From an uncultured Alphaproteobacteria bacterium (GTDB lineage: Bacteria > Pseudomonadota > Alphaproteobacteria > Rhizobiales > Aestuariivirgaceae), in the NCBI GenBank assembly GCA_945957365.1, contig CAMFKI010000018.1:4300-68299 (forward strand): a stretch of 64,000 bases of DNA, read 5' to 3'. Below, in pieces: positions 8,611-22,071 of the stretch. Below the pieces are notes generated by a model, which was not told the DNA's origin, searched no databases, and worked only from the letters and a program-made list of their open reading frames with translations. Within the stretch, counting starts at the first letter, position 1. The number at the start of each line of letters is the position of its first letter. Both the position numbers and the translations under genes were made by a program.

Positions 8611-9546
8611 CTATTCCGCCGGAATGGCGGGGCGCGACTGGGCGTAGAGTGCGGCGATGGCACAGGAAGCCAGCCGCGCCCGGACCGTATCGGCCCGCGA
8701 GGTGAGCACGATCGGCACGCGCGCGCCGACGACGAGCCCCGCCGCATCGGCATTGGCGAGGAACGACAGGTTCTTCGCCAGCATGTTGCCGGCCTCGAGA
8801 TCCGGTACCACGAGGATCTGGGCGCGGCCGGCCACCTCGCCATGGATGTTCTTGATCTTCGCCGCGGCCATGTCGATGGCGTTGTCGAAGGCCAGCGGGC
8901 CGTCGACATAGGCACCGGTGATTTGGCCGCGCTCGGCCATCTTGCACAGGGCCGCCGCCTCGATGGTCGAGGGGATCTTGGTGGTCACCGTCTCCACCGC
9001 CGACAGGATCGCGACCCGCGGCATGCCGAGGCCGATCTGGACGTGGAGGTCGATGGCGTTCTGGACGATGTCGACCTTGGTATCGAGGTCGGGAAAGATG
9101 TTGATTGCCGCATCGGTGATGAACAGGGTCTCGGCATAGGTCGGCACGTCCATCACGAAGACGTGGCTGATGCGCCGCGCGGTGCGGAGCCCCGTGGTCG
9201 ACGAGGTCACCTCGTGCATCAGCTCATCGGTGTGGAGGCTGCCCTTCATGAGGAGTGCGCCTTCCCCCGCCCGGATCAGCGCCACCGCCTGGGCGGCGGC
9301 GGCATGGCTGTGCGGGGCATCGACGAGGCGGAAGCCCGCGATGTCGGCGCCGGCCTTCTCGGCCGCGGCCTCGATCCGGGCGCGCGGGCCCACCAGGATG
9401 GGACTGATGATGCCGAGCTGGGCGGCCTCGACGGCGCCCGTCAGCGAGGTCTCGTCACAGGGATGGACGACGACGGTGGGGGTAGGCTCGAGCGCCCTGG
9501 TGCGCTCGATCAGCCGCTCGTATTTGGCGTGGTTCTGCGTGTCCAA
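8611..9546 (-). CDS. Phosphate acetyl/butyryltransferase (PTA_PTB family)
   Basis: LLMKGSLHT, RRISHVF, ITDAAINIFP, DGPLAFDNA, PDLEAGNMLAK, PIVLTSRAD. Confidence 0.92.
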   Translation of the reverse strand: MDTQNHAKYERLIERTRALEPTPTVVVHPCDETSLTGAVEAAQLGIISPILVGPRARIEAAAEKAGADIAGFRLVDAPHSHAAAAQAVALIRAGEGALLMKGSLHTDELMHEVTSSTTGLRTARRISHVFVMDVPTYAETLFITDAAINIFPDLDTKVDIVQNAIDLHVQIGLGMPRVAILSAVETVTTKIPSTIEAAALCKMAERGQITGAYVDGPLAFDNAIDMAAAKIKNIHGEVAGRAQILVVPDLEAGNMLAKNLSFLANADAAGLVVGARVPIVLTSRADTVRARLASCAIAALYAQSRPAIPAE

Positions 9547-9615: not shown

Positions 9616-10179
9616 ATGGCGATGCGCGAATTCTTTACGGCGATGTGGCGGACCATCCTGCTGCGCGGGCTGGCGAGCCTGATTTTCGGCGTCCTCGCCT
9701 TCGTCTATCCCGGCGTGACGCTGGCCGTGGTGGTGACGCTGTTCGGCGTCTATGCCCTGGTCGACGGCCTGCTGGGCCTGTGGGGCGCCTACCGCGGCAA
9801 GGAGGAGGGGACCTCGGTCACCAGCCTGCTGACCGCGCTGGTGAGCATCGTGGCGGGCCTGGTCTGCCTGTTGGCGCCGGATTTCGCCACCCGTTACGTG
9901 GTGGTGCTGGTCGGCTTCTGGAACATCGCCGCCGGCCTGCTGCAGCTGATCGGCGCGCTGGTCATGTGGAAGGACATCGAGAAGCCCGGCCTGCTTGCGC
10001 TGGCGGGCGTGGCCGGCGCCGTGCTGGGCGGGATCATCGCGTTCAACCCGTCCTTTGCCGCCGAGACCATGATCCGGATCATCGCGGCGACGGCGGTTCT
10101 GGTCGGCCTCGTGCTGCTGGTCTTCGGCTGGCAGCTGCGGACCGCGGCGCAGAATTTCATGAAGGCGCGCGGGGCCTAG
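9616..10179 (+). CDS. HdeD/DUF308 family membrane protein
   Basis: W..ILLRGLASLIFGVLAFVYPG.T motif, FGVYALVDG, six hydrophobic segments; RBS gggag. Confidence 0.85.
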   Translation: MAMREFFTAMWRTILLRGLASLIFGVLAFVYPGVTLAVVVTLFGVYALVDGLLGLWGAYRGKEEGTSVTSLLTALVSIVAGLVCLLAPDFATRYVVVLVGFWNIAAGLLQLIGALVMWKDIEKPGLLALAGVAGAVLGGIIAFNPSFAAETMIRIIAATAVLVGLVLLVFGWQLRTAAQNFMKARGA

Positions 10180-11168
10180 GGCTTCCGCAGCAAGAGTTCG
10201 CGCGCCGTCGCCTCGTTGGTGATCAGCACATTGGCATCGACGAGGCGGATGGCGCCGAGCAGGCAGTCGACCTTGTCGTTGCCGCCCGAGGCGATGACGC
10301 GGCTGGGCACGCTCCTGAGCTGCTCGATGGGGAGCGACATGATGCGGCGGTTGACCGGGTGATCGACGAGGCGCCCGTCACGGTCATAGAAATTGAATAG
10401 CATGTCGCCCACCGCACCGAGCCGCATCAGTTCGGCGCGTTCCTCGTCGCTGATCAGGTTGAAGCGGAAGGCGGTGGAGGAGGGCGCCATGGTGCCGACG
10501 CTGAGGATCGCGAGGTCGAGGCGCTCGGCGCGGCGGAAAATGTCCTTGAGGCCGCAGCGCTCGATCAGCGCCTCGCGCGTTTCGGGTGAATCGACCACCG
10601 CTGGCGCCTGGAACAGGTAGCAGTCCGCCCCCATGATGCGGGCGAACTGCCAGGCGAATTCCGCCGGATTGAACTTGCGCGCCTGAACGATGCCGCCCAG
10701 GAGCGAGATGACCTGCAGGTTCTCGAGATCGCGCGGCGCCAGCGTAATGAGCGATTCATAGAGCGTCGCACCCCAGCCCACGCCCACCGTCATGTCGTCT
10801 TCCAGGGTGTCGGAGACATACATGCCGGCGGCGACGCCGATCGACTTGCGGATGTTTTCGGCCTGCACCGGTTCCGGCACCACCACCGCATCCTTGAAGC
10901 CGAAGGCCTTCTTCAGTTCGCCCTCGAGTTCGAAGCACTCGGAGACCTCGCCCTCGATCCAGATCTTCACCTCGCGCTGCTTGATCGCCTCGTTGATGTT
11001 GCGCACCACGGTGACGCGGCCGATGCCGAGGCGATCGGCAATCTCGTTCTGGGTGAGGCCCTCGACGTAATACATCCAGGCGATGCGCATGCGGTTGCGG
11101 GCGATGCGGCCAGCGCCCCGCTCGGGATTGTGAGGGCGGATCTTGCGGGGCTGGGTCTTCTCCAACAT
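10176..11168 (-). CDS. SorC/DeoR-family sugar-binding transcriptional regulator
   Basis: AWMYYVEGLTQNEIADRLGIGR HTH, GVGWGATL, LGAVGD, ASGGNDK; start uncertain (11168, 11201 or 11228). Confidence 0.9.
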   Translation of the reverse strand: MLEKTQPRKIRPHNPERGAGRIARNRMRIAWMYYVEGLTQNEIADRLGIGRVTVVRNINEAIKQREVKIWIEGEVSECFELEGELKKAFGFKDAVVVPEPVQAENIRKSIGVAAGMYVSDTLEDDMTVGVGWGATLYESLITLAPRDLENLQVISLLGGIVQARKFNPAEFAWQFARIMGADCYLFQAPAVVDSPETREALIERCGLKDIFRRAERLDLAILSVGTMAPSSTAFRFNLISDEERAELMRLGAVGDMLFNFYDRDGRLVDHPVNRRIMSLPIEQLRSVPSRVIASGGNDKVDCLLGAIRLVDANVLITNEATARELLLRKP

Positions 11169-11622
11169 GTGCGGGCCCACGGCGTGGTTGCGGGACTTCA
11201 TTGTGACGGAGGATACTAATTCCTGCAAGCGGGTGCGAAAGTGTCAGTGGCGCATCGCCCCGGAACGACGGCAAATCCGACGGCAAGGTCACCGCGAACC
11301 GGATCCACGGCCGCGCGCCAAGGTCGCTTCGCAGTGCGAGACCTTGTTGCGCCGCGTCATTACGAAACATTTGCACCTCAGAATGTATTTTAGTACATGA
11401 ATTAGCCGAGTGCCGATCCCGCGCCAGAACGGGAAGGTGCCGAGGGAGGAACGGACATGCTGCCTAGCAGACAGTCGTCGTTTCGGTCGCCGCCCCCGCG
11501 CATCGCGAAGGGCCGCTCTCCCCATCGAATCTGCCTTCGACCATCGCCCATCCCGCCCACTGCCGGCCTGCGGTGAGGCCGCGATGCAACGACACAGGCC
11601 GAACCCCATGGAGGACCATCGA

Positions 11623-13197
11623 ATGCCGATCACCAAGCCGGGTCTGATCACCCGCCGCTCGTTGCTGAAGTCCACCGCCGCTGCCGGCGCCGCCCTTGCC
11701 GTTGGCACGGGTGCGGTGCCGCTGGTCAACATCCGCCGCGCCTATGCGCAGGCCCTTCCCAACCCCGCCGACGTGCTGGCCAAGATCAACGTCGGCAACG
11801 TGGTGAAGAAGGAATATCGCGAACAATACAAGCTCGGCGACAATGACGAGCTGTGGGACCCCACGAAGGACTGGATCCGCACGGTGGACTGGGAGCAGGT
11901 GCGCAAGGAACATGCCGGCAAGACCGTGCGCTTCGCCATCGGCGCCGCCGACCGCGAATCCGCGCAGGACCAGATCGAGCCCTTCGCGCAGCTGTCGGGC
12001 ATCAAGATCGAGCTGGTGCCGATCCCGGACGATTCCATGTATGACAAGGTGGTGGCGGAGTTCCTGTCGGGCAATGCCAGCTTCGATGCCATCCAGTTCT
12101 TCTCGCCCTGGCTCGGCGACTTCGCGGCGCAGGGCTTCCTCAAGCCGCTCGATGAATATGTGGCGAAGTGGAAGCTGCCCTTCGACGACTTCTACGAGAC
12201 CTATCAGCTGAACTACGGCCACTGGGCCGACAAGGGCATTCTCGGCATTCCCTTCGACTGCGACCTGCAGATGGTCCACATCCGGCCCTCGGTGTTCAAG
12301 AAGATCGGCATCGACGCCGACCGCGTGAAGTCGATCGAGACCTATGACGACATGATCCGCATCGCGCCCGAGCTCAACAAGGCGGAAAAGGGCGTCAGCG
12401 GCATCGGCATGATGTGCGGCCGCGGCTTCTGGGCCACCTACACCTGGCAGCACATCGCCGCGCAATATGGCCTCGAACTGTTCAACGAGAACTGGGAGCC
12501 GATCTTCAACGGCGATGCCGGTGTCAAGGGGCTCGAAACCATCGTCGCGCTGTCGAAGCATGCGATCGAGGGCGTGGCGGCGGCCGACTGGCCGACCAAC
12601 CGCGCCGCCTGGCTCGGCGGCCAGATCGCCTGCAACATCTCGTGGCAGGATTCCGGCACGCAGGCGACCAGGCCCGACCAGTCCAAGATCGGCGACGATG
12701 TGCTGACCATCTACGAGCCGCGCGTCGCCGGCGGACGCTTCGCGCCGCCCAACATCGCGGGCTCCACCTCCTGCGTGACGGCGACATCGCCCGAGCCCGA
12801 GGCGGCCTTCCTGATGCTGGCCTACCTCACGACCGCCTCGATCATGGCGATGAACGAGGCCAACGCCAACGGCGTGGCGCCGGGCTACAAGTCGGTGCTG
12901 GCCAATGCCAAGCTGCAGTCGGTGTCGGAGCCTGCCAAGGTGTGGGGCGATGAACTGAACTATGCCTGGTGCGCGCCGCGCCTGCCCAACGGCTTCCAGA
13001 TCGACCAGGAAATCGGCTTCCTGATCAACAAGGTCGTGGTGGGCGAGATGCAGCCCAAGGAGGCGCTCGACCAGGCGGCAGCCAAGGTCAAGGACATCAT
13101 GGGCAAGAACGGCTTCTACAAGGGCAACGACCCGATGAACTTCGCCGCCACCGCGCCTGGCATGTGGGTGGGCAAGGGCAAGCCGCTGCCGTTCTGA
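11623..13197 (+). CDS. CUT1 carbohydrate ABC transporter substrate-binding protein with Tat signal
   Basis: RBS ggagga; TRRSLLK twin-arginine motif; family-1 SBP-like body (GIPFDCD); followed by two CUT1 permeases. Confidence 0.88.
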   Translation: MPITKPGLITRRSLLKSTAAAGAALAVGTGAVPLVNIRRAYAQALPNPADVLAKINVGNVVKKEYREQYKLGDNDELWDPTKDWIRTVDWEQVRKEHAGKTVRFAIGAADRESAQDQIEPFAQLSGIKIELVPIPDDSMYDKVVAEFLSGNASFDAIQFFSPWLGDFAAQGFLKPLDEYVAKWKLPFDDFYETYQLNYGHWADKGILGIPFDCDLQMVHIRPSVFKKIGIDADRVKSIETYDDMIRIAPELNKAEKGVSGIGMMCGRGFWATYTWQHIAAQYGLELFNENWEPIFNGDAGVKGLETIVALSKHAIEGVAAADWPTNRAAWLGGQIACNISWQDSGTQATRPDQSKIGDDVLTIYEPRVAGGRFAPPNIAGSTSCVTATSPEPEAAFLMLAYLTTASIMAMNEANANGVAPGYKSVLANAKLQSVSEPAKVWGDELNYAWCAPRLPNGFQIDQEIGFLINKVVVGEMQPKEALDQAAAKVKDIMGKNGFYKGNDPMNFAATAPGMWVGKGKPLPF

Positions 13198-13207
13198 CGT
13201 TTGCCGG

Positions 13208-13244
13208 CCCCTCTCCCGCTTCGCTCCCTGTGGGCGGGGGAGGG
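13208..13244. repeat. REP-like hairpin between SBP and first permease
   Basis: cccctctcccgc ... gcggggagggg inverted repeat. Confidence 0.55.
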
Positions 13245-13266
13245 GATCTTCATCACAGCAGGTTTC

Positions 13267-14178
13267 ATGACCGACGCCGCTCTCCCCACCTCGACCTTGC
13301 GCACGGCGCGGCGACGCAGCCCGTTCCGGCGCAAGGCCTTTCCTTACCTGCTGGTGGCGCCGGCCGTCGTCTACCTGCTGGCCATCACGCTCTATCCCGG
13401 CATCTTCGCGCTGTGGCGCAGCTTCTACCAGGGCCGCTTCAAGCTCGAGTTCATCGGCTTCCAGAACTATGCCGAATTGTTCCAGGACGAGGCCTTCTGG
13501 CACAGCCTGACCAACACGCTGATCATCGGTTCGATCACGCTGGCGGTCGAATTCGTCATCGCCATGACGCTGGCGGCGCTGGTCTACCGCGATCCCTTCG
13601 TGCGCGGCTGGCGCATCGTGTTCCTGCTGCCGATGCTGTTCATGCCCTCGGCCGTCGCCTATCTCTGGAAGCTCCTGTTCAACGACGGGCGCGTGATCAG
13701 CGACCTGCTGATGCGGGTGGGCCTCGTCGACCACAATATCGACTTCATGGGATCGACCTGGCTCGCGCGTGGCGTGCTGGTGGTCACCGACGTGTGGCAG
13801 TGGGTGCCCTTCCTGTTCATCATCTTCGTCGCGGCGCTGCAGGGCCAGGACAAGGAGATCGAGGAGGCCGCACGCCTCGACGGCGCGCGCTGGGGGCAGA
13901 TCTTCTTCGCCATCTCGCTGCCGCTGATGCGGCCGGTCATCGCCATTGCATTGGTGCTGCGCGGCATCGACATCCTCACCATGTTCGCGTCCCCCCACAT
14001 CATCACGCAGGGCTCGCCCGGCGGCGACACCGAGACGCTGAGCTATTTCATCTATCGCACCGGCTTCAAGAGCTTCGAGTTCGGCTATGCATCGGCGGCC
14101 TCCGTCGTGGTGCTGATCCTCACCATCATCCTTGCCCAGAGTTTCGTGCGGCGTTTCTTCCGCTCGGGGAGGGAGTGA
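13267..14178 (+). CDS. Carbohydrate ABC transporter permease
   Basis: YLLVAPAV, WQWVPF, EEAARLDGA EAA loop, GSPGGDTETL. Confidence 0.92.
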   Translation: MTDAALPTSTLRTARRRSPFRRKAFPYLLVAPAVVYLLAITLYPGIFALWRSFYQGRFKLEFIGFQNYAELFQDEAFWHSLTNTLIIGSITLAVEFVIAMTLAALVYRDPFVRGWRIVFLLPMLFMPSAVAYLWKLLFNDGRVISDLLMRVGLVDHNIDFMGSTWLARGVLVVTDVWQWVPFLFIIFVAALQGQDKEIEEAARLDGARWGQIFFAISLPLMRPVIAIALVLRGIDILTMFASPHIITQGSPGGDTETLSYFIYRTGFKSFEFGYASAASVVVLILTIILAQSFVRRFFRSGRE

Positions 14179-15005
14179 TGGCAGAGGGGACACGTTTCTC
14201 CCTCGGCCGTTCGTTCCTGCTGCTCGTCTGGGGGCTGTTCTGCCTGTTGCCGATCATCTTCTTCGCGACGATCGCGCTCCGGCCGCGCAACGAGATCATC
14301 GCGCCGGAGCCCATCTACTTCCCGACGATCTCCATCGAGACCTGGGCCAAGATCTGGGACGAATGGCCGATCATGCATTATTTCATGAATTCGGTGATCT
14401 CGGTGTCGGGCAGCGTCATCATCTGCCTGGTTCTCGGCATTCCCGCCGCCTATTCGCTGGCGCGCTACCAGTACCGGGGGCGGGAAGACATCGGCTTCTA
14501 CATCCTGTCCACCAAGATGATGGCGCCCGCCGCGGTGGCGATCCCCATCTTCTTCCTGTTCCGGGCTCTCGACCTGCTCGACACGGTGTGGGCGCTGATG
14601 CTGGTCTATGCCGCGATGAACCTGTCGATCGTCGTGTGGATCATCCGTTCCTACATGATCGACATCCCGCACGAGATCGAGGACGCGGCGCGCACCGACG
14701 GGGCATCGGACCTGCGCATCCTGTGGTCGATCATCATCCCCATGTGCTTGCCGGGCATCATCACGGCGGCGGTGATCGCGGCGATCTTCGCCATGAACGA
14801 GTATCTGTTCACGCTGATCATCGCCACCAAGAATGCCTATCCGCTGTCGGTGGCGCTGGCGAACTTCTCCGGCGGTTCGGACGGCATCATCTACAACGCG
14901 ATCGCGCTCGTCGCCTTCCTCGCCTTCTTCCCGGCCCTGCTGCTGGTGATCCTGATCCAGAATCACCTGTCGCGCGGGCTGACCATGGGGGCGGTGAAGG
15001 GGTAG
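14178..15005 (+). CDS. Carbohydrate ABC transporter permease
   Basis: ATG overlaps previous TGA; IEDAARTDGA EAA loop, MNEYLF, C-terminal GLTMGAVKG. Confidence 0.92.
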   Translation: MAEGTRFSLGRSFLLLVWGLFCLLPIIFFATIALRPRNEIIAPEPIYFPTISIETWAKIWDEWPIMHYFMNSVISVSGSVIICLVLGIPAAYSLARYQYRGREDIGFYILSTKMMAPAAVAIPIFFLFRALDLLDTVWALMLVYAAMNLSIVVWIIRSYMIDIPHEIEDAARTDGASDLRILWSIIIPMCLPGIITAAVIAAIFAMNEYLFTLIIATKNAYPLSVALANFSGGSDGIIYNAIALVAFLAFFPALLLVILIQNHLSRGLTMGAVKG

Positions 15006-15024
15006 TGCGGCCGTCGCGCGGGGT

Positions 15025-15168
15025 GGCCCTCATCCGGCCTGTCGGCCACCTCCTCCCATCCCTGCGGGACGGGAGAAGGACTCGTGGTGATGTGGGGCAT
15101 TCGCGCAACGAGTCCTTCTCCCGTTGCGAAGCAATGGGAGAAGGTGCCCGACAGGGCGGATGAGGGCC
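15025..15168. repeat. REP/RIME-like inverted repeat pair (about 61-bp arms)
   Basis: ggccctcatccggcctgtcggccacctcctccc...gggagaaggactcgt (15025-15085) and near-perfect reverse complement (15108-15168), between convergent genes. Confidence 0.8.
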
Positions 15169-15181
15169 TCGTTCCGCGCGC

Positions 15182-16129
15182 TCAGCCCTTCGTTCGCGTC
15201 CCCTTCATGAACGCCAGCGTATGCGCGAAGTCCTTCACGCCCGCCTGTGAGCCCAATCCCGTGGCATTCAGTGCCGAGGTCGCCTGGGCAAACCTCACCG
15301 CCGTCTCCATGTCGAAGCCGTGCACCAGGGCCACCGCGAAGCCGGCATCGAAGGCATCGCCGCAGCCGCAGGTGCATTTCACGGTGATGTCATAGGCGGG
15401 CACGTGGAACGTCACCCCATCGCGGTCATGATAATAGGCGCCGTCGCCGCCCAGCGTCAGCACGCAGGCCTTCACCCCCATGTCGAGGAAGAACTTCGCC
15501 GTGTCACCATGGTCGCTGCGGCCGCAGAGCGCCTGTGCCTCCTCGATCGAGGGCATGAAATAATCGGTGCAGGGCAGCACCTGCGCGATGGCCGGCAGGT
15601 CCTTCGGCGACCCGGCGAAGACATCGACGGTGGTCGTCGCGCCATTGGCCTTGGCGGCCTTCATGATGACCGCGGTCTGGCCCTTGTCCATGGCATCCAT
15701 CAGGCCGACGCCGCCGGCATGGAAGACCCTGGTGTCCACCGCCCGGGGGATCATGTCGTCGGTGATGAAGAAGTTCGAGGTCGCCCCCTTCATGTGGAGC
15801 GCCGGGCGCGAGCCGTCGGCGCGGGTGGTGACGATGGAAGACGAGGTCTTCCAGCCGGGCTGGTGCTGCACGCCCCATGTGTCGACGCCGAAGTGCTGCA
15901 GGCGCTGCAGCACCCAGTCTCCCATCAGGTCTTCGCCGACACCGGCCAGTGCCAGCGTCTTCAGTCCCATCTTGGCGGCGGCGATGGCAGCCGTGCCGCC
16001 CGCGCCCGAGACCGCGAGAGTGAGTTCGTCGATGAACACCGTGCCGCCGCCGGGTGGCACTTCCGTAAACGGCCAGCCGAGACAATCATAGGTGTAGAAA
16101 CCCATCGAGACATAGTCGTAGCGCGGCAC
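15182..16129 (-). CDS. PfkB-family carbohydrate kinase
   Basis: SGAGGTAA N-terminal motif, FMPSIEEA, VLTLGGDGA, CGCGDAFDAG anion-hole motif; GTG start. Confidence 0.88.
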   Translation of the reverse strand: MPRYDYVSMGFYTYDCLGWPFTEVPPGGGTVFIDELTLAVSGAGGTAAIAAAKMGLKTLALAGVGEDLMGDWVLQRLQHFGVDTWGVQHQPGWKTSSSIVTTRADGSRPALHMKGATSNFFITDDMIPRAVDTRVFHAGGVGLMDAMDKGQTAVIMKAAKANGATTTVDVFAGSPKDLPAIAQVLPCTDYFMPSIEEAQALCGRSDHGDTAKFFLDMGVKACVLTLGGDGAYYHDRDGVTFHVPAYDITVKCTCGCGDAFDAGFAVALVHGFDMETAVRFAQATSALNATGLGSQAGVKDFAHTLAFMKGTRTKG

Positions 16130-16160
16130 GGGTTACTCCCATCTGAGGCCGTGCCGGTCT

Positions 16161-17408
16161 TCAGGCCAGCATCAGCAATGGCTCTTCAATAAGGCTCCTG
16201 AAGGCCTGCAGCAACTCCGCACCCACCGCACCATCCACCGCCCGGTGATCGCAGGAGAGGGTGCAGGCGATCTGGCTGGCCAGCACCGGCTGGCCCTTCA
16301 CGGGAATGAACCGTTCGACGGCAGATCCGACCGCGAGGATCGTCGCCTGCGGCGGGTTGATGATGGCGGTGAACTGCTCGATCCCGTACATCCCGAGGTT
16401 GGAGATTGCCGTGGTGCCGCCCTGGTACTCGGACGGCACCAGCCTGCGGGCGCGGGCCTTGGCGGCGAGGTCCTTCATCTCGGCCGAGATGGCGGTGAGG
16501 GTCTTGGTCTCGACACTGCGGATCACGGGCGTGAACAGGCCGCCGTCGACGGCGACCGCCACGCCCACGTCGGAGGCGCGATGCCGCAGGATCGCGTCAC
16601 CGGCCCAGGTGACATTGGCGGCAGGCACCTTCTGCAGGGCAGCACCCATCGCCTTGATGATGAAGTCGTTGATCGACAGCTTCCACAGGGGCTTGCCGTC
16701 GGCACCCTTGGGAGCGGCGGCATTGAGGCGCTCGCGCGTCGCCAGCAGCGTGTCCAGCGTGCAGGTGACGGAAAGATAGAAATGCGGGACGGTCTGCTTC
16801 GACTCGGTCAAGCGCGCCGCGATGGTGCGGCGCATGCCGTCGACGGGGACAACGTCGAAGCTGCCGGGGGCATAGAGCTTCTGCACGCCGTCGCCGGGGA
16901 CGGCTGTGGCCGGCATGGCGGCGGGTACCGGTTTGCCTTCCGACGCGCTGCGCACATCCGCCGCGACGATGCGGCCGCGTGGGCCGCTGCCGGCGATGGC
17001 GGCGAGCGTCAAGCCCGCTTGGCGTGCGAGGCGGCGGGCGAGTGGGGTGGCGCGTGGGGCTTCGCCGTTGCTGACGGGAGCTGCGGCAACCGATGCAGAA
17101 GGGGCCTTTGGTGCCGACGCAGCCTGCGCAACCGGCGTGGCCATCGCAGCGGGCGCGCTGACGGCCTCGCCCTCGGCATAGATCCATGCGACGGCGGAGC
17201 CCACAGGTGCTGAGCTTCCCTCGTTCACCACGATGTTGCGCAGGATGCCGTCGGCAGGCGCATCGATCTCCATTGCCGCCTTGTCGGTCTCGATCTCGAA
17301 CAGCGCCGCACCCTTGGCGACCTTGTCGCCATCCTTGTGGTGCCATTTCGAGATCTTGCCCGTCGCCATGTCCATGTCGACGCGGGGGAGGATGACTTCG
17401 ACGGCCAT
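16161..17408 (-). CDS. Dihydrolipoamide acyltransferase E2 (AcoC/PdhC-like)
   Basis: Lipoyl domain ETDKA, PSBD ATPLARRLA..GSGPRGRI, VPHFYL, catalytic DHRAVDG; start 17408. Confidence 0.93.
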   Translation of the reverse strand: MAVEVILPRVDMDMATGKISKWHHKDGDKVAKGAALFEIETDKAAMEIDAPADGILRNIVVNEGSSAPVGSAVAWIYAEGEAVSAPAAMATPVAQAASAPKAPSASVAAAPVSNGEAPRATPLARRLARQAGLTLAAIAGSGPRGRIVAADVRSASEGKPVPAAMPATAVPGDGVQKLYAPGSFDVVPVDGMRRTIAARLTESKQTVPHFYLSVTCTLDTLLATRERLNAAAPKGADGKPLWKLSINDFIIKAMGAALQKVPAANVTWAGDAILRHRASDVGVAVAVDGGLFTPVIRSVETKTLTAISAEMKDLAAKARARRLVPSEYQGGTTAISNLGMYGIEQFTAIINPPQATILAVGSAVERFIPVKGQPVLASQIACTLSCDHRAVDGAVGAELLQAFRSLIEEPLLMLA

Positions 17409-17409
17409 C

Positions 17410-18395
<986 letters not shown>

Positions 18396-18399
<4 letters not shown>

Positions 18400-19412
18400 G
18401 CCGCCTCGGGTGAATAGACGTCGCGCGTGACTTCGGATGGATCGGGATCGGTGCCGAGCCGGGCGAATTCGATGCCCGCCGCGATCTCGGCCTCGGCGGA
18501 TTCGCGGATGGCGTTCACCTCGGCCTCGGTGGCGATGCCATGCGCCATCAGTTCGGACTCGAAATGCGGAATGGGGTCACGCGCCTTCCACTCCTCGATC
18601 TCCTCCTTGGTGCGGTAGCGGTTGCGGTCGGAGCGGGAATGGCCCCGCGTGCGGTAGGTCTTGCATTCGACGAGGCTCGGGCCATCGCCGCGCCTTGCCC
18701 GCGCGATTGCCTCGGCAATGGCCTCTTCGACGTCGGCGATGGAATTTCCGTCGGCGATGACGCCGGGCATGCCGTAGGCCGCCGCACGGTCGGCGATATT
18801 CGCCACCGCCATGGAGCGATCGGTGGAGACCGACATGCCGTACTTGTTGTTCTCGCAGACGAAGACCACCGGCAGCTTCCAGATCGCCGCCATGTTGAGA
18901 GCTTCGTGAAACGCGCCTTCATTCGACGCGCCGTCGCCGAAGAAGCACATGGCGACGTCGTCGCGCTTCTGCTTCTTGATGGCGAGTGCCGCCCCCACCG
19001 CGATGGGCAGCCCGCCGCCGACGATGCCGTTGGCGCCGAGATTGCCGGTGGCCACGTCGGCGATGTGCATGGAGCCGCCGCGGCCGCGGCAATAGCCTTC
19101 CTCCTTGCCGAAGAACTCGGCGAACATCAGCTTGGGGTCCGCCCCCTTGCCGATGCAGTGGCCATGGCCGCGATGCGTCGAGGTGATGTAGTCGGACGTG
19201 CGGAGCGCCATGGTGGAGCCGACGGCGGAACCCTCCTGGCCGATCGAGAGATGCATGGTGCCGTGGATGAGGCCGCGCATGTAGGCTTCCTCGGCCCCTT
19301 CCTCGAAGCGGCGGATCAGGTACATCCGGCGCAGCGCTTCCTTCAGCTGGTCGGCGGAATATCTCTGATAGAAGGGGCGGGCATTCGGCTTGATCTGGCC
19401 CACGGCGTTCAT
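18396..19412 (-). CDS. ThDP-dependent dehydrogenase E1 alpha subunit (AcoA/PdhA-like)
   Basis: [26 protein letters not shown]...ENN ThDP motif, TYRTRGHS; start 19412 overlaps upstream TGA. Confidence 0.93.
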
Positions 19413-20764
19413 TGCGAAAGTCCTTTCAGCATGTCGTCCTGGCGCTGGCGCAGCGCCACGATGCGGGCGGAGGCATCCACCGCGCAGTTGTCGTAGGTGA
19501 GGAGCGCGCCCTTGCGGACCGGCTTCGTGACCTTGCCGTTCTCGAGGAGGCCGCAGGGAATGGCGCGATCCCGCGCCGCATCGCCCGTGGTCATGATCCA
19601 GGCGCGGTAGGTGTACTCGCCGATGGCGTCGAGCCGTGCGCCGGGTGCGAGATCCTTCTTGGCCACCGCGCAGACCTCCGCCGAGGGCACGTCGAGCGGC
19701 ACCATGTCGGCAGCGTGGTAGAGCACGGCGCGGGCACAGGAGAGCGGCACCTCGAGGCTGGTCAGGTGATAGGGCCGGTAGAAGGTGTAGTAGGGGCCTG
19801 CACCGAGCTTCAGGTCGTGCATGCGCTCGCGCACGCGGGGATGCGCCATTTCGGCGATGACGAAGACGCCGGGGGCCACACCCTTGCCGATGGAGTAGTC
19901 CACGACACCCTTCCTCGACAGCACGCCGCCATCGGCGACGGGGCACAGCACCTTCTCGAGCTGGTCCAGCGTTGCGGCGGGGCCGTGCATGCCGGGGCGG
20001 TCGGGCATGAGGCCGGTGGCGTTGGCGATGGCCGCCATTTCCACCATGGTCTTGGAGCCGTCGACGAACTCGACCAGCATGCGCGGGTTCATGTTGCGCC
20101 GCTTCGCTTCGTCCATGTATTCCGCCGGTGTGGCATCGATGTTGAGCGGGTTGTTCTTGCCCTTGCCGGCGGCGACGATGGGGTAGCCGAGGCCGGTGAC
20201 GAAATTGACGAGCTCCATGGTGGAGGAAGGCTCGTCGCCCGCACCCAGCGTATAGACGACGCCCAGCCGCTGCGCCTCGCGCGCCAGATAGGCGCCGATG
20301 GTGACGTCGGCCTCGACATTCATCATCACGAGGTGCTTGCCGTGCTCCATGGCGGTGAGGCCGATCTCCGCACCGACCGCCGGCTTGCCCGTGGCATCGA
20401 CGACGACATCGATGTGGGCAGAGGTGCAGACGAGTTGCGCGTCCTGGGTGATGGCGGTCTTGCCGGACTCCAGCAATGTGGCGAAGGCAGAAGCCGTCGC
20501 CGCCTCGGCCACGTCGTTGTCGGGACGGCCGGAAATGCCGAGGGCCTTTCTGGCGGCAGGAAGGTTGATCTCCGCGATCGCGGCGACGGTGATGCCCGTC
20601 ATCTGCTGGCACTGGGTGACGATGTCGGTGCCCATCTCGCCCGAACCGATGAGGCCGACACGGATGGGTCGGCCCTCCTTCTCCATGCGGCGGCCCAAGT
20701 CCGCGGCAAGTCCGGTGGCCGCGCCGATGCGGCGCTGGCCGCGCGAAAGATCATCTGCCGGCAT
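19409..20764 (-). CDS. NAD(P)-dependent oxidoreductase with C-terminal SAF domain (homoserine-dehydrogenase-like, COG4091-type)
   Basis: GLIGSGEMG Rossmann motif, MMNVEAD, GAGDEP, FVDGSKT, YRPYHL, VAKKDLAPG SAF start; RBS caggag before 20764. Confidence 0.85.
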   Translation of the reverse strand: MPADDLSRGQRRIGAATGLAADLGRRMEKEGRPIRVGLIGSGEMGTDIVTQCQQMTGITVAAIAEINLPAARKALGISGRPDNDVAEAATASAFATLLESGKTAITQDAQLVCTSAHIDVVVDATGKPAVGAEIGLTAMEHGKHLVMMNVEADVTIGAYLAREAQRLGVVYTLGAGDEPSSTMELVNFVTGLGYPIVAAGKGKNNPLNIDATPAEYMDEAKRRNMNPRMLVEFVDGSKTMVEMAAIANATGLMPDRPGMHGPAATLDQLEKVLCPVADGGVLSRKGVVDYSIGKGVAPGVFVIAEMAHPRVRERMHDLKLGAGPYYTFYRPYHLTSLEVPLSCARAVLYHAADMVPLDVPSAEVCAVAKKDLAPGARLDAIGEYTYRAWIMTTGDAARDRAIPCGLLENGKVTKPVRKGALLTYDNCAVDASARIVALRQRQDDMLKGLSQ

Positions 20765-21021
20765 GCCGGTCTCCTGACTGCTGCGGAAGGCAGAGAATAG
20801 GATACTTTTGGGCCTGCCGGTGTCAATAAGTATTGTTTGGCTCCAATCATCTGATTTCGCAGCTGCGAAGGTGGCTCGCGCCTGCGAAACCGAGCCTGAC
20901 CGCCGATGCGGGAGCAAGTGCAGGCTCTCCTGAGGCATTCCATTCCGAAACAATCACGCAGGCATCTTGCATTTAGTGTCGGATGTGTGAAACTTCGACC
21001 TGAACAGGAGCGAAGCAGCCC

Positions 21022-22071
21022 ATGGCATCGATCAGCCTGAACAAGATCAGCAAGGCCTGGGGCCCTGTGGTGGGCGTGGACGCGATCGACCTCGAGATTC
21101 GTGACAAGGAATTCATGGTGTTCCTCGGACCCTCGGGCTGCGGCAAGACCACCACCATGCGGATGATCGCCGGCCTCGAAGACCCCACAGGGGGCGAGAT
21201 CCTGATTGACGGCGAGACGGTGAACGACGTCGATGCGCGTGACCGCGACGTGGCCATGGTGTTCCAGTCCTACGCGCTCTACCCCAACATGACGATCTAC
21301 GAGAACATCCGCTTCCCGTTGCGCATGCGCGGCGTGCCGAAGGACAGGCAGGACCAGATGGTGCGTGACGCGGCCGCCATCGTCGAACTCGGCGACCTGC
21401 TGGACCGCAAGCCGCGGGCCCTTTCCGGCGGCCAGCGTCAGCGCGCGGCCCTAGCCCGCGCCGTGGTGCGCCACCCGCGCGTGTTCCTGATGGACGAGCC
21501 CCTGTCCAACCTCGACGCCAAGCTGCGCCTCACCATGCGGGCCCAGCTGAAGCACATCCAGCGCCGGCTGCAGACGACGACCATCTACGTGACGCATGAC
21601 CAGATCGAGGCCATGACACTGGCCGACCGCATCGCCATCATGAGCAAGGGCCAGATCCAGCAGCTCGGCACCCCGGACGAGGTCTATAACAACCCGGCCA
21701 ACGTCTTCGTCGCGGGGTTCATCGGCTCGCCGCCGATGAACCTGCTGAAGGGCGAACTCGAGAACGGCACCTTCGTGGGGCCGGCGACACGCGTCGAGGG
21801 CGTGGGCAAGGGCAGCCGGCCGGGCGTGACCCTCGGCATCCGACCGGAGGACGTGTCCGTGGCGGCTCCGGGGCAGGGGCATCTCACGGCGTCACTCTAT
21901 TCGCTCGAACCCCTCGGCGACCAGACGCTCGCCGCCGTCATGGCGGGAGACCAGATGGTGGTGGCGAAGGCCGCGCGCAGCTTCCGGCAGGAGCTCGAGA
22001 CCCCGATCAGCCTGGGTTTCGACGTGTCGCGCTGCTATCTCTTCGATGCCGCGAGCGGCGCGCGGCTCTGA
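21022..22071 (+). CDS. Sugar ABC transporter ATP-binding protein (MalK/UgpC-like)
   Basis: GPSGCGKTT, LSGGQRQR, LMDEPLSNLDA, VTHDQIEA, TOBE-like C-terminus. Confidence 0.95.
   Translation: MASISLNKISKAWGPVVGVDAIDLEIRDKEFMVFLGPSGCGKTTTMRMIAGLEDPTGGEILIDGETVNDVDARDRDVAMVFQSYALYPNMTIYENIRFPLRMRGVPKDRQDQMVRDAAAIVELGDLLDRKPRALSGGQRQRAALARAVVRHPRVFLMDEPLSNLDAKLRLTMRAQLKHIQRRLQTTTIYVTHDQIEAMTLADRIAIMSKGQIQQLGTPDEVYNNPANVFVAGFIGSPPMNLLKGELENGTFVGPATRVEGVGKGSRPGVTLGIRPEDVSVAAPGQGHLTASLYSLEPLGDQTLAAVMAGDQMVVAKAARSFRQELETPISLGFDVSRCYLFDAASGARL

Follow-up and report, generated by a model that had tools for sequence, protein, structure and literature searches.

Genes and operon structure of the locus

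The locus described here occupies positions 10176–22071 of a 64,000-nucleotide stretch of contig CAMFKI010000018.1 (hereafter, the window), which comes from an uncultured alphaproteobacterium of the Aestuariivirgaceae. It comprises the gene for a SorC-type regulator, the genes for an ATP-binding cassette (ABC) importer of the CUT1 type, and an operon encoding an oxidoreductase, the E1α, E1β and E2 components of a thiamine diphosphate (ThDP)-dependent dehydrogenase complex, and a kinase of the PfkB family. In an earlier reading of the same stretch (the original prediction), it was proposed that an imported sugar, polyol or cyclitol is first oxidized, then phosphorylated and finally cleaved by the E1/E2 complex. 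Our analysis leads to a more specific model, which we hold with moderate confidence, namely that the locus serves the catabolism of 2-C-methyl-D-erythritol (ME), in which the entry to the pathway named after MEP (2-C-methyl-D-erythritol 4-phosphate) would be run in reverse and DXP (1-deoxy-D-xylulose 5-phosphate) would be broken down to acetyl-CoA and glyceraldehyde 3-phosphate (GAP).

Genes were called from a listing of open reading frames, Pfam and NCBIfam searches, and a check of the coordinates. Every gene named in the original prediction was recovered by Pfam/NCBIfam, at or near the coordinates given there, except that the minus-strand starts of the E1α and E2 genes lie at 19412 and 17408, respectively. 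The operon is transcribed from the minus strand. Its first gene (19409–20764) encodes an NAD(P)-dependent reductoisomerase of the DXR-II/DRL family (DRL_cat, PF21135, 232 bits), and is followed by those for the ThDP-binding E1α (18396–19412; E1_dh, 297 bits), E1β (17410–18399; Transket_pyr and Transketolase_C), the E2 dihydrolipoyl acyltransferase (16161–17408; Pfam lipoyl, E3-binding and 2-oxoacid_dh domains) and, as the last gene, the kinase (15182–16129; PfkB, 128 bits). The five genes are as tightly coupled as had been supposed: the oxidoreductase stop and E1α start codons overlap in an ATGA, as do the E1α stop and E1β start, the E2 ATG lies 1 nt beyond the E1β stop, and the GTG start of the PfkB gene is preceded by a 31-nt gap that contains a GGGAG ribosome-binding site.

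The CUT1 importer is encoded by four genes. The substrate-binding protein (SBP), which has a twin-arginine (TAT) signal and is periplasmic, is encoded on the plus strand at 11623–13197 (SBP_bac_1, 108.6 bits), followed on the same strand by two BPD_transp_1 permeases. The first of these, UgpA-like according to NCBIfam, spans 13201–14178, with its likely start at the ATG at 13267, whilst the second (14175–15005; 68 bits) overlaps the stop codon of the first; as a pair, the permeases resemble UgpA, UgpE and MalG. The gene for the MalK-like ATPase (21022–22071, plus strand; ABC_tran, TOBE_2 and OB_MalK; UgpC-like at 431 bits) diverges from the operon at the other end of the locus, and its position is kept in orthologous loci. 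SBP orthologues in other clusters of the ABC form are 64–94% identical. All 22 of the NCBIfam matches listed for the kinase fall well short of their cut-offs (the best being ribokinase, 114 bits against a cut-off of 300), and its closest PDB entry is E. coli YdjH, a sugar kinase; the PDB relatives of both the kinase and the SBP are too distant to give a clue to the ligand. The regulator, of the SorC/DeoR type, is encoded on the minus strand at 10176–11201 (Sugar-bind, PF04198, 205 bits, plus helix-turn-helix hits). Although its longest open reading frame reaches 11228, the ATG at 11201 lines up with the starts of the orthologues. PDB relatives of the regulator are DeoR, LsrR, SorC and Listeria Lmo0547.

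Relationship of the oxidoreductase to DXR-II

The oxidoreductase had been taken for a poorly characterized SAF-domain protein of the COG4091 type. Judged from its sequence, it belongs instead to the DXR-II/DRL family, whose known substrates are DXP and MEP. The DRL_cat score is far above the cut-off of 27 bits, and an NAD_binding_3 domain is also present (35.8 bits). The protein matches PDB entries 3UPL and 3UPY, the fosmidomycin-binding DRL of Brucella abortus, with 589 bits and E = 6.6e-176 over residues 15–448 (3UPL), and a MAFFT alignment gave 62% identity to the B. abortus enzyme. We checked ten residues that discriminate DXR-II from DLO1 and DLO2, bind fosmidomycin or form the dimer (PMC3847144). 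Nine are identical (G121, E174, F178, K191, K193, T229, H250, R320 and Y322), including the DLO-discriminating or fosmidomycin-binding T229, H250, K191 and K193, whereas the tenth, V351, is S in the clade to which the window protein belongs. The DXR-II match and the signature residues thus point to DXP and MEP, a pair already known, as the substrates of one of the operon's enzymes. The top database match to the window protein (P0001; 1049 bits, 76% identity over 81% of the query) is 625 aa long and is encoded on a 6.8-kb JGI contig; as the usual length is 440–450 aa, it is either a fusion or has a mis-called start.

The work on the B. abortus DRL is reportedly that of Sangari in 2010, Perez-Gil in 2012 and Carretero-Paulet in 2013. 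DXR-II of the B. abortus type converts DXP to MEP where the classical enzyme, DXR-I, is absent, and many Hyphomicrobiales have no DXR-I and rely on DXR-II (PMC3847144). Holders of DXR-II also include Listeria monocytogenes and Finegoldia, which has a functional DXR-II and no other MEP-pathway enzyme, and both paralogues of Ochrobactrum anthropi, as well as both of Mesorhizobium loti, are functional (PMC3847144). The DXR reaction is listed as reversible in a review of February 2026, according to which there is as yet no defining pattern for the distribution of DXR-II (PMC13001223).

A search with the B. abortus sequence showed that Brucella and Ochrobactrum carry two groups of paralogues. Members of the first are 88–96% identical to the B. 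abortus enzyme and stand alone beside pntAB and a gene for a HAD hydrolase, whereas members of the second are 74–75% identical, bear a generic name and are linked to clusters such as the one described here (one of them, P0362, is 99% identical to the product of the Brucella tritici gene at locus L072). It is to this cluster-linked kind that the window's DXR-II belongs. Since both paralogues of O. anthropi and M. loti were reported to be functional, and one of the Ochrobactrum paralogue types is cluster-linked, the cluster-type proteins are probably competent DXP/MEP enzymes. The pntAB transhydrogenase genes adjoin the stand-alone Brucella-type gene at L205/L206 (8001–12683), a neighbourhood that would suit an NADPH-consuming biosynthetic enzyme. 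Naming within the family is inconsistent: the housekeeping DXR-II of Brucella and Ochrobactrum (P0271, P0275, P0279 and others) is called "1-deoxy-D-ribulose 5-phosphate reductoisomerase" by NCBI, where "ribulose" instead of xylulose looks like an error, and the cluster-linked paralogue of the same species is named only "NAD(P)H-dependent oxidoreductase".

Gene partners of DXR-II in other genomes

In a scan of one genome per species we obtained 80 loci with a close DXR-II homologue (L001–L080), whose neighbourhoods were analysed by tblastn with the window's ten proteins and with proteins of the sister loci. E1α and E1β genes adjoin the DXR-II gene in 61 of the 80, mostly directly downstream, and 56 of these 61 also have the E2 gene; a SorC homologue is adjacent in 34 loci. 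The association of E1α/E1β with DXR-II is far beyond chance. The taxa represented include Aestuariivirga, which is closest (up to 91% identity), Mesorhizobium, Rhizobium/Ensifer/Shinella, Aquamicrobium, the Brucella species formerly placed in Ochrobactrum, Paraburkholderia, Burkholderia, Xenophilus and Sphaerotilus. Eleven loci lack any such partner (one of them, L042, lies in an unrelated housekeeping context), and nine of these eleven form a separate clade. In a neighbour-joining tree of the 80 DXR-II-like sequences, none of which is a labelled DLO1 or DLO2, this stand-alone clade lies apart from the operon-linked sequences with a bootstrap of 90/100. Grouping of the B. abortus enzyme itself with that clade had a bootstrap of 0/100 and was rejected; its true orthologues, those that are 88–96% identical and lie beside pntAB, were absent from L001–L080 in a dedicated search.

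The loci differ in their front ends, of which there are two that are not homologous to each other. ABC importer genes and/or the PfkB gene occur in 38 of the 80 and a phosphotransferase system (PTS) of the glucitol family in 17, whilst none has both; the PfkB gene (33 loci) is never found with the Gut-type PTS. The PTS form, as in Paraburkholderia solisilvae (L036), Mesorhizobium sp. CU3 (L060) and Brucella tritici (L072), consists of IIC (EII-GUT), IIBC and IIA, and GutM or an HPr-EI fusion is often present as well. Co-occurrence with sugar-uptake genes is thus seen in dozens of genomes, and the view that the genes form one catabolic unit, conserved and regulated together, for an imported compound that resembles a carbohydrate is supported. 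Its steps, however, probably do not follow the order first suggested, in which oxidation precedes phosphorylation, as the PTS of the sister clusters replaces the ABC importer and kinase and delivers a substrate that is already phosphorylated. Because a PTS phosphorylates during uptake, the substrate of DXR-II should be a phospho-polyol, and the window's kinase would therefore act before the oxidoreductase. That the imported compound is carbohydrate-like still holds, and where "sugar, polyol or cyclitol" had been suggested, we infer more narrowly that it is ME or a close 1-deoxy or branched analogue. In Salmonella, the glucitol (sorbitol) PTS imports and phosphorylates ME, according to a study known to us through its citation elsewhere (Testa, Cornish & Poulter 2004, cited in PMC3994034).

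The kinase could also be read differently. Were 1-deoxy-D-xylulose or another 1-deoxy-ketose imported, the kinase would make DXP directly, and DXP would then be split between E1/E2, for energy and carbon, and DXR-II, with the latter providing MEP for isoprenoids, so that salvage and catabolism are combined. PfkB kinases usually act on ketoses or aldoses, YdjH, the nearest relative in the PDB, is a sugar kinase, and DXP is common to the DXR-II family and the proposed E1 reaction. In addition, an E. coli sugar kinase is described as phosphorylating free deoxyxylulose in work that we cite at second hand (Wungsintaweekul 2001, cited in PMC3424233). We nevertheless consider this route unlikely: DXR-II would be dispensable for catabolism, yet it is encoded by the first gene of the operon, is coupled to E1α and is better conserved than any other member of the cluster, and the alternative uptake system is a glucitol-family PTS, the known substrates of which are polyols, including ME.

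Clusters of this kind also turn up in low-GC metagenome contigs, and a part of them (DXR-II, PTS and SorC) in Listeria. Metagenome contigs were scanned for the motif GKGKNNP with a codon-biased DNA pattern, and 64 loci carrying DRL-family genes were recovered, of which 18 have a Gut-type PTS and 10 have E1α/E1β genes beside them. The GC content of these contigs is 33–63%, the DXR-II proteins are about 38–44% identical to the Brucella enzyme in the examples checked, and K191, K193 and T229 are kept in the contigs that carry E1α/E1β. In L. monocytogenes, the DRL-family gene lies between a SorC regulator gene and genes for GutM and the sorbitol PTS, with no E1/E2. This unit (L202, 6766–11578; strain NCTC7974; the sorbitol PTS is lmo0542-0544) was found in a 569-kb record that was deposited as "plasmid 5" and resembles a fragment of the chromosome. 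Its SorC regulator corresponds to Lmo0547 (PDB 4R9N), as judged from a position two genes away from an internalin gene of the "lmo0549 family". On a megaplasmid of Ligilactobacillus salivarius (NZ_CP101686.1; L203, 7971–15542), the DRL gene is accompanied by genes for a Gut-type PTS, GutM and SorC and then by fsa and a transketolase gene (tkt), again with no E1/E2; fsa and transketolase may form a non-oxidative downstream branch. The genus of L. salivarius has the mevalonate pathway. The association of DXR-II with PTS and SorC genes is therefore broader than that with E1/E2.

These distant members raise the question of whether another polyol or branched sugar alcohol (apiitol-like, a methyl-threitol, or a pentitol or hexitol) might be the substrate, with the DXR-II paralogue acting as a polyol-phosphate dehydrogenase/isomerase and E1/E2 cleaving the resulting keto-sugar phosphate. 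DRL members do occur in different sugar clusters (L097, with apiosidase-like, FGGY kinase and Zn-dependent alcohol dehydrogenase genes; L098, with SIS and alcohol dehydrogenase genes), the products of fsa and tkt in the L. salivarius unit handle ordinary ketose phosphates, and in the Gut-PTS operons DRL sits where sorbitol-6-phosphate dehydrogenase would be. However, the DXR-II-specific substrate-binding residues are all kept in the cluster-linked proteins, which are 62–75% identical to an enzyme that uses DXP and MEP, and the cluster-type paralogues of Ochrobactrum and Mesorhizobium were reported to be functional DXRs. Moreover, cleavage of a 1-hydroxy ketose gives a glycolyl rather than an acetyl unit, so an acetyl-transferring E1/E2 would be unneeded for an ordinary ketose phosphate. 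We regard a substrate of this sort as improbable, and favour ME.

Three further observations concern the family and its clusters. At L097 (LSQX01324630.1, 5667–11185), the DRL-family gene, whose product has the DXR-II signature residues, lies between the Zn-dependent alcohol dehydrogenase and FGGY kinase genes, adjoins the apiosidase-like gene and is near a fucose-isomerase-like gene, a context which hints that other sugars with a branched chain, apiose derivatives for instance, are rearranged by some members of the family. On a plasmid of Mesorhizobium, a relative of the DLO type was considered and set aside; it is 33% identical and lies in a different sugar cluster, with no clear link to apiose or apionate genes. 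Lastly, a protein of about 200 aa (L204, 252–839; S. meliloti pRM41A) accompanies the DXR-II/E1/E2 cluster. Its homologues, found at 29 places in 28 loci (for example L036, 6819–7451, and L060, 16942–17580) and with either front end, but not in the window, may be an extra component of the system; no Pfam domain was found in the L036 and L060 homologues and no PDB relative for the L204 protein.

The orthologous loci were also used for phylogenetic footprinting of the control regions. In the region between the divergent regulator and SBP genes (11229–11622), comparison of nine loci revealed an invariant box, GCAAATGTTTCG, on the opposite strand at 11364–11375, and a AGTATCCT box lies immediately 5′ of the regulator gene. 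GAAACATTTGCA has a single exact match in the 64-kb window. A search of the window for GAAACANTTGCA with 2 mismatches returned 4 matches where 7.2 were expected, which is not significant and leaves just the exact copy at 11364 and the cross-species footprints as evidence. Upstream of the operon, a promoter scan found a promoter-like TTGACA-16-TATCCT on the minus strand at 20799–20826 (10 of 12 matches), inside a block, ATACTTATTGACA-N12-AAAGTATCCT, that is conserved in 11 orthologous loci and in which the inverted repeat ATACTT/AAGTAT is a candidate operator. Between the convergent permease and kinase genes there is an imperfect hairpin of 144 nt (15025–15168), with 61-nt arms that are 87% complementary, a 22-nt loop and a nested 14-nt palindrome. 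Its arm sequence is single-copy in the window, and it could be a bidirectional terminator or an element resembling a repetitive extragenic palindrome (REP) or a miniature inverted-repeat transposable element (MITE).

The locus is flanked upstream by the suf operon and genes for cytochrome c, a PTA_PTB-like protein and a DUF308 protein, and downstream by genes for a DUF1801 protein, dehydrogenases and an unrelated ABC system. The PTA_PTB-like gene (8611–9546, minus strand) resembles phosphate acetyl/butyryl-transferases and has the PTA_PTB domain only, matching the C-terminal two thirds of the profile, whilst the DUF308 gene (9616–10179, plus strand) encodes a membrane protein; both genes are found just past that of the regulator.

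The E1/E2 complex and a proposed route for methylerythritol

The E1α translation contains the ThDP motif GDG...NN, and that of E2 the ETDKA lipoyl-lysine and DHRAVDG catalytic motifs; E1β lacks an N-terminal lipoyl domain. The best PDB match to E1α is human pyruvate dehydrogenase (PDH) E1α, at 218 bits. Against the PDH equivalog TIGR03182, E1α scores 379.3 bits, below the cut-off of 393.85; of the seven DXR-II-linked E1α proteins tested, six are under this cut-off and the seventh (the distant L128) reaches 396.7. E1β passes the PDH subfamily model NF006667 (398 bits, cut-off 321) but falls short of the equivalog NF008854 (393, cut-off 454). The window's E2 scores 436 bits against TIGR01349 (cut-off 445), where that of Mesorhizobium L060 exceeds the cut-off with 463. 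The AcoC-type model NF011457 (cut-off 307) matches only the lipoyl region of the window's E2 (109 bits), which has the 2-oxoacid_dh domain, whereas the E2 proteins of Paraburkholderia L036 (377 bits) and Ochrobactrum L072 (431 bits) are of the AcoC type. A single orthologous E1α/E1β pair is therefore combined with a PDH-type E2 in the window and in Mesorhizobium, and with an AcoC-type E2 in Paraburkholderia and Ochrobactrum. As TIGR01349 and NF011457 both name acetyltransferases, a donor of a CH3-CO- group, such as DXP, is implied. All seven DXR-II-linked E1α proteins examined have GHS(K/R)SD in the active-site loop, and one may speculate that the basic residue could help to bind a phosphate. 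The refuting conditions named with the original prediction are for the most part not borne out: the genes do co-occur with those for sugar uptake, and E1α and E2 lie just under the PDH equivalog cut-offs. The proteins are, however, inseparable from Aco and Pdh by sequence alone, and no AcoA-specific model or structure turned up among the HMM and PDB matches to E1.

That the ThDP-dependent E1/E2 complex is the likely C–C cleaving step, as originally proposed, is supported, and so is its use of a shared E3. The Pfam-scanned genes (1.5–38 kb of the window) include none for E3, aldolase or transketolase, in keeping with the original prediction, the window's E2 has an E3-binding domain, and related copies on plasmids carry their own lpdA. 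The copy on a plasmid of Rhizobium sp. N324 adds lpdA and fba to the operon, the S. meliloti Rm41 copy, which lies on the conjugative plasmid pRM41A, has both lpdA and lipA in addition, and lpdA is found inside the cluster in four other genome loci and one low-GC contig. The additions of lpdA and lipA argue for a genuine lipoamide-dependent oxidative complex and exclude that E1 is no more than a carboligase or synthase, and the fructose-bisphosphate aldolase gene, fba, of the N324 cluster fits a triose-phosphate product (GAP). In the direction opposite to the cleavage proposed here, PDH and acetoin dehydrogenase have been described as forming 1-deoxyketoses (Yokota & Sasajima 1986, which we cite through PMC3424233).

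The nearness of the E1/E2 proteins to PDH invites a simpler explanation, in which a biosynthetic DXR-II and an ordinary second pyruvate or acetoin dehydrogenase, or an E1α/E1β pair acting as an alternative DXP synthase, happen to share an operon with sugar genes. E1α, E1β and E2 all score near PDH models and sister clusters have an AcoC-type E2, many Hyphomicrobiales are reported to have no DXR-I and to depend on DXR-II, and in E. coli DXP can come from a mutant PDH E1 (PMC3424233). Against this, adjacency and translational coupling, together with a sugar-type regulator and a system for uptake and phosphorylation, are kept across alpha- and betaproteobacteria and low-GC contigs. Neither a kinase nor a PTS is needed for acetoin or pyruvate, and a synthase would need no lipoyl E2, lpdA or lipA. 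The cluster is also found on accessory conjugative plasmids, and Brucella and Ochrobactrum have a separate, stand-alone paralogue. We therefore judge the absence of any pathway link to be very unlikely.

We propose instead that the genes act together on ME, as follows. The CUT1 system would import free ME, which the PfkB kinase would phosphorylate to MEP. DXR-II, working in reverse, would oxidize and rearrange MEP to DXP, and E1α/E1β would then cleave DXP between C2 and C3 to give GAP and hydroxyethyl-ThDP. The hydroxyethyl unit would be oxidized onto the lipoyl arm of E2 and leave as acetyl-CoA, with the general E3 of the cell re-oxidizing the lipoamide. The SorC regulator, probably sensing MEP or DXP, would control the divergent promoters. 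We proposed DXP as the substrate of an acetoin-dehydrogenase-like complex because DXP, like acetoin, is a methyl α-hydroxyketone. The model would explain why Finegoldia has a functional DXR-II and no other MEP-pathway enzymes.

Several points weigh against this proposal. The equilibrium of the DXR reaction is usually held to favour MEP, so that flux in reverse would depend on the pull exerted by E1/E2. We know of no described PfkB kinase that phosphorylates ME. E1α/E1β and E2 are nearest in sequence to alphaproteobacterial and mitochondrial PDH, E1β passes the PDH subfamily cut-off, and pyruvate or acetoin is a possible substrate. The window's DXR-II may also serve biosynthesis. As Listeria and L. 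salivarius have DXR-II and no E1/E2, the downstream fate is not universal, and the substrate there might differ. The operator motifs, though common to the orthologues, are not statistically distinctive within the window, and every step of the pathway as drawn here is deduced from sequence and gene context.

More tentatively, we suggest that DXR-II may be primarily a catabolic family, at home in a pathway for growth on ME that is widespread and often borne on plasmids and that employs a hitherto unrecognized E1/E2 complex, a "DXP dehydrogenase (acetyl-transferring)", and that its biosynthetic use in Brucella, Bartonella and their relatives would be a secondary recruitment that followed the loss of DXR-I. 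This would explain both the patchy distribution of the family and its presence in bacteria that lack the MEP pathway, and offers a testable answer to the open question of DXR-II distribution. Plants and algae contain ME, a sugar alcohol that is also one of the isoprene-derived methyltetrols of the atmosphere. Root-nodule bacteria carry the cluster on plasmids, and it turns up again in metagenomes from aquatic sites, so that its ecological function may lie in exploiting carbon that derives from plants or algae. The window comes from an Aestuariivirga-like bacterium of the Hyphomicrobiales that was seen in metagenomes from fish gut, freshwater and groundwater; in a search over any kind of run, its sequence was listed in DNA metagenome runs only, and in no RNA run.

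That the pathway is undescribed, as originally thought, agrees with our finding no characterized pathway that matches it. Full-text literature searches returned nothing on ME catabolism, a DXP-cleaving dehydrogenase complex or the operon context of DXR-II, though a passing mention elsewhere is possible, and the RefSeq names of the cluster genes are generic ("NAD(P)H-dependent oxidoreductase", "TPP-dependent dehydrogenase E1"). Familiar enzyme families would thus be combined in the locus to form a pathway not described before, in which the predicted substrate of the E1/E2 complex is new. If our model is correct, it adds a new route of carbohydrate cleavage, makes DXP a new natural substrate in the family of 2-oxoacid/acetoin dehydrogenase complexes, and provides the first catabolic fate for methylerythritol and MEP-pathway intermediates. 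Being compact, the module could also serve metabolic engineering, either to draw off DXP/MEP or to feed ME. Confirmation would bring new annotations for those members of the family that are linked to clusters; the family as a whole has thousands of relatives in the databases.

Of the known systems, acetoin dehydrogenase (AcoA/AcoB/AcoC/AcoL) resembles the proposed route in its chemistry. It shares with the window a heterotetramer-type ThDP-dependent E1α/E1β and a lipoyl E2, it has a counterpart in the true AcoC-type E2 of the sister clusters, and the reaction that we propose, conversion of a methyl α-hydroxyketone to an aldehyde and acetyl-CoA, is the same. However, the catalytic domain of the window's E2 is a standard 2-oxoacid_dh domain, the substrate that we propose, DXP, is a sugar phosphate, and GAP would be released as the aldehyde. 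Typical aco systems have an AcoR regulator and butanediol dehydrogenase, and a context of SorC regulator, ABC importer and kinase is unlike that of aco operons. The PDH complex (PdhA/PdhB/PdhC/Lpd) provides the nearest relatives in sequence, the window proteins being within 10–15 bits of the TIGR03182 and TIGR01349 cut-offs. It differs in that the window's E1α and E2 are under these equivalog cut-offs, E1β does not have the N-terminal lipoyl domain of PdhB of the PRK11892 type, the E1α loop is GHS(K/R)SD as opposed to GHSMSD in human PDH, there is no lpd gene in the window, and the operon context is entirely different.

With regard to uptake and the order of steps, the sister clusters resemble glucitol (gut/srl) operons, as they carry a full Gut-type PTS (IIC/IIBC/IIA), GutM and a SorC-type regulator and share the logic by which a polyol is converted to a polyol phosphate and then oxidized with NAD(P); the window, in contrast, has the ABC importer and PfkB in place of the PTS. 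In the classical gut operon, the position taken by DXR-II in the PTS clusters belongs to a sorbitol-6-phosphate dehydrogenase of the short-chain dehydrogenase/reductase type. In the catabolism of erythritol by Brucella (EryA kinase, EryB dehydrogenase and the SorC-type repressor EryD), a tetritol is likewise phosphorylated first and then oxidized as the phosphate. Unlike the route proposed here, that one relies on a kinase of the FGGY type and a GlpD-like dehydrogenase, with isomerases acting after them, and has no ThDP/lipoyl cleavage. Uptake of ME by Salmonella, as far as it is described in the citing source (PMC3994034), rescues isoprenoid auxotrophs only and is not catabolic.

Finally, the DXR-II of B. 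abortus has the same NAD_binding_3 and DRL_cat domains as the window protein, and shares its substrate-anchoring, fosmidomycin and dimer residues. That enzyme has been described only as a biosynthetic substitute for DXR-I, and its Brucella and Ochrobactrum orthologues stand alone, whereas the window protein represents a paralogous lineage that is embedded in operons and tied to uptake, kinase or PTS, and E1/E2 genes, a linkage which implies that it works in the opposite physiological direction.

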